Assembly (NCBI GenBank): GCA_035495615.1
Contig: DATJFP010000088.1
Coordinates: forward strand, 41,763-105,762
Length of the DNA stretch: 64,000 nucleotides
Direction: 5' to 3'
From: Verrucomicrobiia bacterium
GTDB taxonomy: Bacteria; Omnitrophota; Omnitrophia; Omnitrophales; Aquincolibacteriaceae
Shown here piece after piece: positions 1-48,530 of the stretch. The translations under genes were made by a program, and so were the position numbers. Below the pieces are notes generated by a model. The model had not been told where the DNA came from and ran no database searches. It saw only the letters and a program-made list of their open reading frames with translations. Within the stretch, counting starts at the first letter, position 1. The number at the start of each line of letters is the position of its first letter.

Positions 1-290
1 AGGCGCGCGCGGCCGCGGAGCGCGCGGTTGATGTCGGTCTGCAGCGCGATCTCCCCTTCCCCGAGGGCTCGCAGGAACTGATACGCGTAGGCCATGACGA
101 TGGGATTGTTCTCGTCGACGGCCGCGGGAATCACCAGCTGCCCGCTGCGCAGGAGCGTCGAGATGTGGCGGGCATAAGCGCGGTAGATCGGGCCCGAGTC
201 GAAAAACTGATAGCCGAATTCCCTGGCCAGAGCCCGGGCGGCTGTCGATTTACCGGCCTGCGCGGGACCCGCGATATTGATGCCTTCGGG
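1..290 (-). other. Cytidylate-kinase-like P-loop NTPase module, in frame within the giant ORF (Walker A GPAQAGKS at 246-269)
   Basis: Codon-by-codon minus translation: ...[52 protein letters not shown]... This matches the Cmk N-terminal signature I(A/D)GPxxxGKST(V)A..LA...G....DxGxxYRA seen in bacterial Cmk proteins. No stop codon separates it from the 1,000 upstream codons I translated. Confidence 0.5.

Positions 291-48530: not shown

Follow-up and report, generated by a model that had tools for sequence, protein, structure and literature searches.

Giant genes are a recognised feature of the Omnitrophota, in which 46 genes longer than 90 kb and open reading frames (ORFs) of up to 85,804 amino acids (aa) have been described, and a divergent SecA_DEAD domain is common in these giant proteins generally (West-Roberts et al. 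2023, bioRxiv 10.1101/2023.11.21.568195). A second survey counted 5,761 Omnitrophota proteins of at least 10 kaa (thousand amino acids), with 24–28% of contigs carrying one; in its 916-protein catalogue 94% of the proteins had a signal peptide or transmembrane (TM) helices and 15% were without a match in any InterProScan member database (Nielsen & Lui 2026, bioRxiv 10.64898/2026.06.07.730766). Here we analysed a 64,000-nucleotide stretch of contig DATJFP010000088.1 (the window), in which a single minus-strand ORF encodes 16,176 residues, none of them cysteine, before it leaves the window (Table 1). Judged by its sequence, this ORF is almost certainly one genuine gene and a member of the Omnitrophota class of giant signal-peptide/TM proteins. 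We found two modules that offer clues to its function, namely a conserved N-terminal module (the head) that probably has the fold of the TIKI/TraB/EreA hydrolases and a glycosyltransferase (GT) module of the Cgs/OpgH type set between clusters of TM helices. A first description of the same DNA from its letters alone (the sequence-only reading) had called giant genes rare in bacteria and could not place the domain combination of this one in a described family. The rarity does not hold for the Omnitrophota, where such genes are catalogued by the thousands and where a 16-kaa, largely Pfam-dark ORF with a signal peptide and TM helices is typical, while the difficulty of placement persists in that the protein fits neither of the named Archaeovorin and Dockerin types. 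Pfam and NCBIfam scans of the visible 16 kaa, run over tiles of 1,000 aa in two registers, detected no SecA_DEAD, C39, S8, dockerin, TSP3, NUDIX or methyltransferase domain. Archaeovorin (West-Roberts et al. 2023) is thus not matched in the visible sequence, which has one Cgs/OpgH-type GT and one peptidase-like head and no SecA_DEAD, glycoside hydrolase, NUDIX or methyltransferase domain, and neither the dockerin nor the TSP3 repeats that abound in the Dockerin type were detected there.

The longest stop-free run in the six frames of the window extends on the minus strand from position 3 to 48,545 (48,543 nt, 16,181 codons), and the runner-up in any frame measures 5,820 nt. At the regional base composition (p = 0.027 per codon) 441 stops would be expected over the ORF and none is observed (log10 P(0) = -194); in each of the other five frames the same span is interrupted, by 21–608 stops. 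G+C content at the three codon positions (GC1/GC2/GC3 = 0.68/0.43/0.79) gives a coding pattern along the whole gene. The start at the first ATG is supported because the N-terminus can be aligned from residue 1 with 15–48 homologs, because the 251-nt AT-rich intergenic spacer on its 5' side contains a promoter-like sequence, and because on a separate short JGI contig of the same organism the gene is called 267 nt past the same response regulator, a spacing that agrees with the window. The sequence-only reading had proposed a single minus-strand ORF of more than 48.5 kb running off the window edge, too long to be stop-free by chance, opening with an ATG, a basic stretch and a hydrophobic helix and of a true length beyond the window; each of these points was borne out, with 16,176 aa from the ATG at 48530, the basic stretch and helix within aa 1–32 and no stop before position 1. 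A search with the last 400 aa for an extension beyond position 1 returned no related loci in genome or metagenome contigs. On the plus strand the giant gene is faced by long ORFs, which reach 1,940 codons (for example at window 3–5822, 21123–25694 and 29790–34337); we rejected them as genes and regard them as an antisense by-product of the strong sense-strand GC3 codon bias, in a frame that has 21 stops.

It is scarcely credible that the ORF is an assembly or consensus artefact, whether through chimerism or collapse of the contig or through the fusion of several genes whose stops were lost. Public assemblies hold only 2.6–2.8 kb fragments of the organism, the homologous region is split into several ORFs at two related loci (L001 and L002 among the loci that we fetched), and the G+C content of the gene is above that of its flank, all of which might be expected of an artefact. 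Against this, a ratio of 0 to 441 stops would be impossible to reach by fusing unrelated sequence, the codon preferences are those of the flank in a stronger form and change smoothly along the gene, and cysteine is absent throughout. Moreover, in ~66 of 82 loci from independent assemblies the same head opens an ORF that is still uninterrupted where the available sequence stops, and this ORF is at least 3,900 aa long wherever 10 kb is available. A worry had also been raised that repeats at 37.9–41.5 kb drove a misassembly. The longest exact nucleotide repeats in the gene are 38–39 nt and the 501-nt repeat copies in that interval are old and diverged, so repeat collapse is unlikely and the sequence gives the worry no support.

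Searches with the first 900 aa returned 52 head homologs, and the named ones all belong to Candidatus Omnitrophica/Omnitrophota or the PVC group. When one genome per species was scanned, 77 head loci emerged, all of them in Omnitrophota metagenome-assembled genomes (MAGs), Ca. Taenariivivens baikalensis included. Because all 77 named-genome loci belong to Omnitrophota MAGs and the flanking genes show shared synteny, the gene is assigned on sequence grounds to an Omnitrophota genome. By the same kind of comparison, relatives share the synteny of the locus, and within the giant gene the head is conserved and the body mosaic. The head is kept in 81 fetched loci at 34–67% identity and is the only part of the protein conserved in all relatives; over the 3,300 residues behind the head, the best partner among 30 relatives usually matches 40–60%, and seven relatives have nothing in common with any other. 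Between the giant gene and its relatives we found in common only the head, a second family-conserved segment (module 2) and a patch at aa 10,081–10,733 that is matched at a single locus (L050), and the ~8,000 residues at aa ~700–8,680, among them the putative stalk and the PP2C module, have no counterpart in any fetched locus. A word-indexed search of 5.8 billion proteins gave no homolog for the C-terminal 1,176 aa. Several MAGs carry two or three different head-bearing giant ORFs (for example L024/L049/L058; L040/L070/L082; L042/L066; L053/L080), which implies paralogs within genomes besides the syntenic ortholog.

The TIKI superfamily comprises Tiki, TraB/PrgY/GumN, EreA/B/C, Bcr135/136, ChaN, RRSP and HopBA1 (Sanchez-Pulido and Ponting 2013, as cited in PMC6254334), and its hallmark is a 2His/2Glu motif with a basic residue, given for RRSP as E3900-x-H3902, E3930, R4001 and H4030 and for Bcr135 as a set that includes H85 and E113 (PMC6254334). 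In the head of the giant protein, D92-x-H94, E122, R468 and H496 show no or next to no variation across 49 sequences, and they stand in the canonical order and spacing, the distance from His to Glu (+28) being equal to that in RRSP and Bcr135 and the distance from Arg to His being +28 as against +29 in RRSP. An AlphaFold2 model built from the 49 sequences (mean predicted local distance difference test score, pLDDT, 85.8; predicted template modelling score, pTM, 0.73) is confident, and an alpha/beta core with a parallel sheet is the predicted fold. Members of the head family also gave weak Pfam matches to ChaN (four members) and TraB (one member), no model reaching its threshold. Three features set the head apart from the known superfamily: its first acidic residue is Asp and not Glu, a helical insertion of ~300 aa separates the two halves of the core, and it is joined to a giant chain as its first domain. 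The insertion that splits the core weighs against the assignment, as do two null results, since neither a Foldseek comparison of the head with the PDB nor a search of PDB sequences with the head profile gave anything significant. Weighing these, we consider it probable that the head is a TIKI/TraB/EreA-like fold with a His/acid/Arg catalytic constellation, and thus a predicted hydrolase. Distant members of the head family (~30% identity) include a stand-alone 504-aa protein (L003 10001–11515) and a 1,409-aa protein (L005 10001–14230), which lie directly downstream of giant ORFs of 11,572 aa and of 7,815 aa, the latter with Peptidase_C39; their neighbours include PilZ genes and genes for large fused glycolytic enzymes (PFK; PPDK-PGK).

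In front of the head, aa 1–32 comprise a basic n-region, a hydrophobic core of 16–19 aa and a V-x-A site, the cleavage position following from the -3/-1 rule; no lipobox is present at the N-terminus of this cysteine-less protein. The N-terminus is therefore a predicted Sec signal peptide or signal anchor.

The second module was reached through its relatives. A HMMER search with aa 11,590–12,789 against 1.84 billion representative proteins returned 17 matches, mostly to the soluble segment, and BLAST of the GT segment of the giant protein against those homologs gave values of 1e-20 to 1e-28. An alignment of eight sequences conserves SD.D, FQP...N, GK, S.D (SHD in 7/8), E and W, and the giant protein keeps all 12 invariant columns. 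The family profile matched Cgs/NdvB (PDB 8rf9, 8rf0) across the GT84 domain with E = 1.2e-24, and hhalign of the same profile with Escherichia coli OpgH gave a probability of 96.6% (E = 6e-10). In the alignment D11826 (window 13053–13055) is paired with the first Asp of LDAD in Cgs, a residue that by count is D624 in 8rf0 numbering, one of the two Asp residues of Cgs that coordinate uridine diphosphate (UDP; PMC10901819). The GT84 domain of Cgs docks beneath its TM helices on the cytoplasmic side (PMC10901819); in the giant protein, TM clusters end at aa 11636 and resume at aa 12023 and so adjoin the GT domain on both sides, with helix parity alone suggesting that it lies on the cytoplasmic side.

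The sequence evidence identifies this segment as a Cgs/OpgH-type GT module with putative activity. It is a module only and not a complete Cgs, because neither GH94 nor a GH144-like cyclase was detected in aa 12,000–16,176 with Pfam, NCBIfam or PDB. Its likeness to Cgs and OpgH lies in a homologous catalytic domain, in which SD.D, QP..N, GKG, SHD..E, E..P and W align, and in the TM helices that directly bracket this domain, and, for Cgs, also in its being housed inside a very large multi-domain membrane protein. The membrane parts differ, as 7 + 12 TM helices flank the domain here compared with 6 in Cgs and 8 in OpgH, and the giant protein belongs to a subgroup with a variant last motif and an insertion, and its sequence is too divergent for single-sequence matches in Pfam or PDB. 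The larger of the two helix clusters (cluster B) is essentially an orphan among the 1.84 billion representatives, one 440-aa fragment being 52% identical over the last helices of the cluster; should the cluster be the route by which the GT product is translocated, that route is a very divergent one.

Only the PP2C and cytidylate-kinase-like (Cmk) modules, together with a sub-threshold ARMT1-like match, emerged from the Pfam and NCBIfam tiles, and the Cmk P-loop was all that a PDB sequence search with the entire chain returned. None of the four metal-binding Asp motifs (motifs 1, 2, 8 and 11) is missing from the PP2C-type module, where they follow in the usual order within ~300 aa (NED 4793–95, VADGAGG 4809–15, YSDGG 4981–85, DDDD 5070–73), with YSDG in place of the canonical CSDG. 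It passes the cutoff of PF13672 (E = 6.9e-6; 26.2 bits against 24) and matches NCBIfam Stp1_PP2C with E = 3.5e-8 over the N-terminal half of that model. At the end of the window, 93 aa match the start of Cmk (E = 9e-10 to 4e-9) with both the P-loop (aa 16084–16121) and the DSG..YRA motif, before the edge cuts off a domain that in cytidylate kinases spans ~210 aa and includes the NMP-binding and LID parts. The PP2C-like module, the Cmk-like P-loop and the helical repeats named in the sequence-only reading are thus all present, the first at aa 4791–4885, and its list lacked the most informative features, namely the TIKI/TraB-like head, the Cgs/OpgH-type GT and the TM clusters. Matches to PAH_ZNF598, Sigma54_CBD, Baculo_PEP_C, HEAT_2, PG_binding_2 and CCA-NTase were rejected as sub-threshold hits to low-complexity helical sequence.

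Three further segments recur in other proteins and have no PDB or Pfam relatives. Module 2 is found at 25–40% identity in 10 relatives by tblastn against the fetched loci, and there it lies just ~1 kaa past the head; an empty homolog search with aa 8,650–9,450 was a word-index false negative. At the locus L002 (13834–13894; JGI 3300037067 / NCBI JBAZER010000003.1) a 1,297-aa ORF overlaps a 7,903-aa ORF in another frame by 13 nt, and the break falls inside module 2, opposite aa ~9,079 of the giant protein; its cause may be an error in sequencing or a frameshift, either real or programmed. At L001 the giant gene is broken into at least five ORFs. The second segment is common to the giant-protein fragments P0059 and P0060, and the third is shared with P0056, a 4,150-aa fragment of another giant protein that has HAD, complete Cmk, APH and HD domains. 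Because P0056 carries these domains, further enzyme modules probably lie beyond the window. When P0056 is set beside aa 11,745–15,470 of the giant protein, its complete Cmk precedes the segment homologous to aa 14,735–15,470 and the Cmk-like domain follows that segment here, a difference in module order that, as far as sequence comparison goes, indicates module shuffling within giant genes.

Between the head and the PP2C module, at aa ~800–4,700, only 0–5% of the residues are aromatic and 56–62% are helix-forming. Ala/Glu/Arg-rich helical repeats and the interval 37.9–41.5 kb had both been flagged, and seven tandem repeats lie precisely there; weaker related copies extend over aa ~1800–4700 (window 34431–43133), and self-comparison finds repeats nowhere else in the protein. 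The AlphaFold2 model of the repeat (pLDDT 94) is all helices, a generic arrangement without a specific structural relative. Giant helical-repeat surface proteins are also represented by Staphylococcus aureus Ebh and the giant ORFs of Chlorobium chlorochromatii. The likeness to these is a long, Cys-poor, repetitive helical rod that is anchored in the membrane and presumably serves cell-cell or envelope mechanics; the difference is that repeats make up <20% of the Omnitrophota protein, the remainder being non-repetitive with enzyme modules and many TM helices.

Such a rod could suggest that the whole protein is a structural envelope scaffold or fibre whose enzyme-like modules are inactive, degenerate relics. 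The ~4 kaa of generic helical repeat, the orphan status of most of the sequence, the variant last motif of the GT subgroup and the sub-threshold ARMT1 match are all compatible with this. We nevertheless regard it as very unlikely, as relics would be expected to lose the catalytic residues that are kept in the head (49 sequences), in PP2C (four Asp motifs) and in the GT (12 invariant columns), and the Cmk-specific motif is intact.

A Kyte-Doolittle scan gave ~28 candidate TM helices arranged in clusters, so that the proposed membrane anchor stands as an N-terminal anchor or signal and fails as a single anchor. Taking the first helix as N-in, because the N-terminus is basic, and counting all 28 helices, parity would place the head and the stalk (aa 31–3,556) outside the cytoplasm, the PP2C (within aa 3,745–7,121), the GT (aa 11,637–12,022) and everything after aa 12,751 inside, and aa 7,141–8,940 and 9,415–11,353 outside. 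We favour this topology because it meets the cofactor needs of the modules, that is, a UDP-sugar for the GT, ATP for Cmk and those of PP2C. Tiki, PrgY and ChaN are extracytoplasmic, membrane-tethered proteins, and a head outside the cytoplasm fits their location.

Read together, these features suggest that the giant protein would enter the inner membrane via Sec, with the head hydrolase, the stalk and aa ~7141–8940 and ~9415–11353 outside the cytoplasm and with the PP2C, the GT and the C-terminal nucleotide/phosphoryl-transfer modules facing the cytoplasm. Like Cgs and OpgH, the GT would work at the membrane and build a chain of the beta-glucan type out of a nucleotide sugar, and the cytoplasmic kinase and phosphatase modules would supply or regulate it. 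The Cys-free stalk would hold a TIKI-type protease or esterase off the membrane, where it may process envelope or host-cell proteins or esters, and the fast turnover of the mosaic body may mark a surface for host or partner contact in episymbiotic bacteria, which is suggested because the body changes fast and in a mosaic manner. For the combined reading (a real gene, of this class, with such a mechanism) we lean towards acceptance; the mechanism as stated, a single-chain envelope machine, is tentative and in our estimate somewhat short of probable.

Several observations weigh against this reading. The 3' end of the gene lies outside the window, and about two thirds of the visible protein is without a domain match. 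The topology needs the doubtful helix at aa 3,726–3,744 to be counted, several helix pairs are just 1–3 residues apart, and the positive-inside signal is weak (K+R 0.132 inside versus 0.099 outside) and contradicted by the hairpin at aa 3557/3598. The GT assignment is transitive, as the giant sequence by itself has no PDB or Pfam match, and its subgroup has KW.RFD for RW..GD.Q as the last motif (with W kept) and a 14-aa insertion after SHD; the GH94 and cyclase partners expected of a Cgs were likewise not detected, as noted above. The ARMT1-like match is below threshold. Finally, the coupling of glucan synthesis to a surface hydrolase is a conjecture of ours.

The same modules could instead be parts of a polyprotein, in which one chain is cut by the TIKI-like head or other proteases into fibre, phosphatase, glucan synthase and kinases and the gene serves as a co-expression device. 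The head does resemble a superfamily that includes the site-specific endopeptidases Tiki and RRSP, and polyprotein cleavage has been proposed for the N-terminal C39/S8 peptidases of other Omnitrophota giants (West-Roberts et al. 2023). The modules are also shuffled, with Cmk before the shared segment in P0056 and after it in the window gene, the homologous region of L002 comes as two ORFs, and stand-alone 504-aa heads exist. We consider a polyprotein unlikely, since a head outside the cytoplasm could not reach segments in the cytoplasm, we saw neither a recurring cleavage-site motif nor a pattern of linkers, and the TM clusters adjoin the GT directly, as in single-chain synthases.

Distinctly less likely still is a predatory wall-degrading or adhesion protein, mostly extracellular, that attaches to prey and digests its envelope, a role that has been put forward for giant proteins of the Omnitrophota at large. 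The phylum, the size class, the signal peptide and the many TM helices would suit such a protein, the long Cys-free helical region is like a surface fibre, and a mosaic, fast-evolving body fits contact with prey or host. However, overlapping Pfam/NCBIfam tiles of the visible 16 kaa gave no match to a hydrolase of glycosides or of peptidoglycan or to a lectin, dockerin, TSP3 or SecA_DEAD domain, and no type II secretion genes occur in the 15 kb upstream flank. The enzymes that can be recognised are biosynthetic or regulatory and use cytoplasmic cofactors (UDP-sugar GT, PP2C, Cmk).

Returning to the envelope-spanning single chain, the comparison with described Omnitrophota giants shows likeness on many points. 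The phylum and the size above 10 kaa are the same, an N-terminal signal or TM segment is joined by clustered TM helices (~28 here versus a catalogue mean of 22 at >=10 kaa), and GT, kinase/phosphotransferase and Ser/Thr-phosphatase-type modules are embedded in mostly unannotatable sequence. Protein-level repeats have diverged without nucleotide tandems, a putative peptidase-like domain stands beside the signal peptide, and the sequence is largely unique, as are the 80% of catalogue clusters that are singletons. The differences are a TIKI/TraB-like N-terminal domain that is mentioned in neither West-Roberts et al. (2023) nor Nielsen & Lui (2026), a GT of the Cgs/OpgH type and not of the starch-synthase or GT1 type, and a locus kept in synteny, where the head is conserved and the body varies as a mosaic. 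Giant signal-peptide/TM proteins of the Omnitrophota are known, and what we did not find in the two key papers is the TIKI-like head family, the Cgs/OpgH-type GT, the avoidance of cysteine and the syntenic locus with a mosaic body.

We propose, as a more doubtful extension, that the TIKI/TraB-like head defines a distinct, undescribed family of Omnitrophota giants that is syntenic, vertically inherited, often present in extra copies, almost or wholly Cys-free and mosaic in its body, and that the member described here would be a single-chain, envelope-spanning machine in which a hydrolase, carried outside the cell by a stalk of >3,000 residues, is coupled to a Cgs/OpgH-like glucan synthase and to phosphoryl-transfer enzymes in the cytoplasm. 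If both parts were true, this would be a new type of host-interface organelle made from one gene. Omnitrophota giants are among the largest known proteins, their workings are almost unexplored and their sequence is mostly unannotatable. The compact ~500-aa head with its recognisable catalytic constellation can be expressed and assayed, the glucan-synthase-type module would fix one point of the topology and suggest a product, and the head may serve as a marker for a series of orthologous giant genes at one locus in which the gain and loss of thousands of residues can be studied. These findings refine current views and overturn none; the size of the gene will not surprise a specialist, and the handles should be useful.

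The absence of cysteine extends in weaker form to the family. At the 0.63% found in the flank, ~100 cysteines would be expected among the 16,176 residues; head-ORFs across the family (L001, L002 and L006–L082) have 0.06% (121/199,535) compared with 0.89% in their upstream neighbours, and other Omnitrophota giant fragments have 0.03%–0.54%. Cysteine goes unmentioned in the main text of both West-Roberts et al. (2023) and Nielsen & Lui (2026). Avoidance through the one-step proximity of Cys codons to UGA is an unlikely explanation, as Trp (UGG) is present at 0.9%, and the zero-Cys rule may report on the export or solubility of such chains. The gene also departs from its flank (window 48797–63948) in G+C content (62–67% versus 50–55%) and in GC3 (0.79 versus 0.66), with the same codon preferences in a stronger form. 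At four-fold degenerate sites G+C is 0.79 at the 5' end and increases along the gene, reaching ~0.93 around codon 12,000 (rho = 0.68, p = 1.6e-5). We rejected this rise as a rule of the family, as it is absent in 30 relatives, and relatives also lack the elevation; expression level, selection for accuracy or recent history are possibly its cause in the window gene.

Table 1 Positions of the giant gene, its predicted parts and nearby elements in the window (aa numbers count from the first ATG; TM, transmembrane; GT, glycosyltransferase)
Feature	Window position	Strand	Residues and remarks
Giant ORF	3..48530	minus	aa 1-16,176; first ATG 48530; no stop and no Cys codon; 3' end past position 1
Signal peptide or signal anchor (predicted)	48435..48530	minus	aa 1-32: MIDWQTRRAKPW-LRTVALLVALIFIV-HDVVWA, then DGGG after the cleavage site
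TM 1 helix		minus	aa 12-30
Head module, TIKI/TraB/EreA/ChaN-like alpha/beta core (predicted)	46851..48353	minus	aa ~60-560; ~300-aa helical insertion at aa 177-482
Head catalytic codons (putative)	D92 48255-48257; H94 48249-48251; E122 48165-48167; R468 47127-47129; H496 47043-47045	minus
Low-aromatic Ala/Glu/Arg/Leu-rich helix-forming region, putative stalk	37863..46133	minus	aa ~800-3556
Seven tandem 167-aa (501-nt) all-alpha repeats	37977..41483	minus	aa 2350-3518; 45-67% protein identity
TM hairpin	37299..37862	minus	aa 3557-3575 and 3598-3616; doubtful third segment aa 3726-3744
PP2C-type phosphatase module	33291..34208	minus	aa ~4775-5080
Single TM	27111..27167	minus	aa 7122-7140
Module 2, family-conserved	20451..22508	minus	aa 8675-9360; three TM segments aa 8941-9010; a further TM just downstream at aa 9396-9414
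TM triplet within module 2 and single TM just downstream of it		minus	aa 8941-9010; aa 9396-9414
Segment common to giant-protein fragments P0059 and P0060	15525..17402	minus	aa 10377-11002; no PDB/Pfam relatives
TM cluster A, ~7 helices	13623..14471	minus	aa 11354-11636
Cgs/OpgH-type membrane GT catalytic domain (GT84/GT2-like)	12531..13613	minus	aa ~11640-12000
TM cluster B, ~12 helices	10281..12464	minus	aa 12023-12750
Weak ARMT1-like (damage-control phosphatase) match	5430..5762	minus	aa 14257-14367; E = 5e-4, 19.7 bits against a cutoff of 25; tentative
Segment common to P0056	2121..4328	minus	aa 14735-15470; no PDB/Pfam relatives
Cmk-like domain start, 93 aa	3..281	minus	aa 16084-16176; P-loop GPAQAGKS, DSGPIYRAY motif; cut by window edge
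Sigma-70-like promoter candidate, TTGACA-17-TATACT	48733-48705	minus	11/12 consensus positions; consensus match only
Terminator-like hairpin of upstream response-regulator gene	48780-48794	minus	seen in the sequence
Two-component trio	48797-51243	minus	receiver-only response regulator 143 aa; hybrid receiver-PAS-HisKA-HATPase kinase 520 aa; receiver-only response regulator 121 aa
tRNA-Ala (anticodon CGC)	51327-51402	minus	between two-component genes and lysophospholipase; sole RNA gene in window by Rfam and ARAGORN

Upstream of the giant gene lie 15 kb of ordinary bacterial chromosome with all genes on the same strand. They include lepA (partial), lepB, a GH1 glucosidase, SPOR proteins, GNAT, PilZ-YajQ-PilZ, a patatin/cNMP protein, FadD and a lysophospholipase, followed nearer the giant gene by tRNA-Ala(CGC) and then by a trio of response regulator, histidine kinase and response regulator. 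None of the three proteins of this trio has a DNA-binding output domain. Among the fetched loci the upstream genes are shared to different degrees (lysophospholipase 32, FadD 26, patatin 23, PilZ 22, YajQ 16), and the two-component trio is common only to the closest relatives (L001, L006 and L058).

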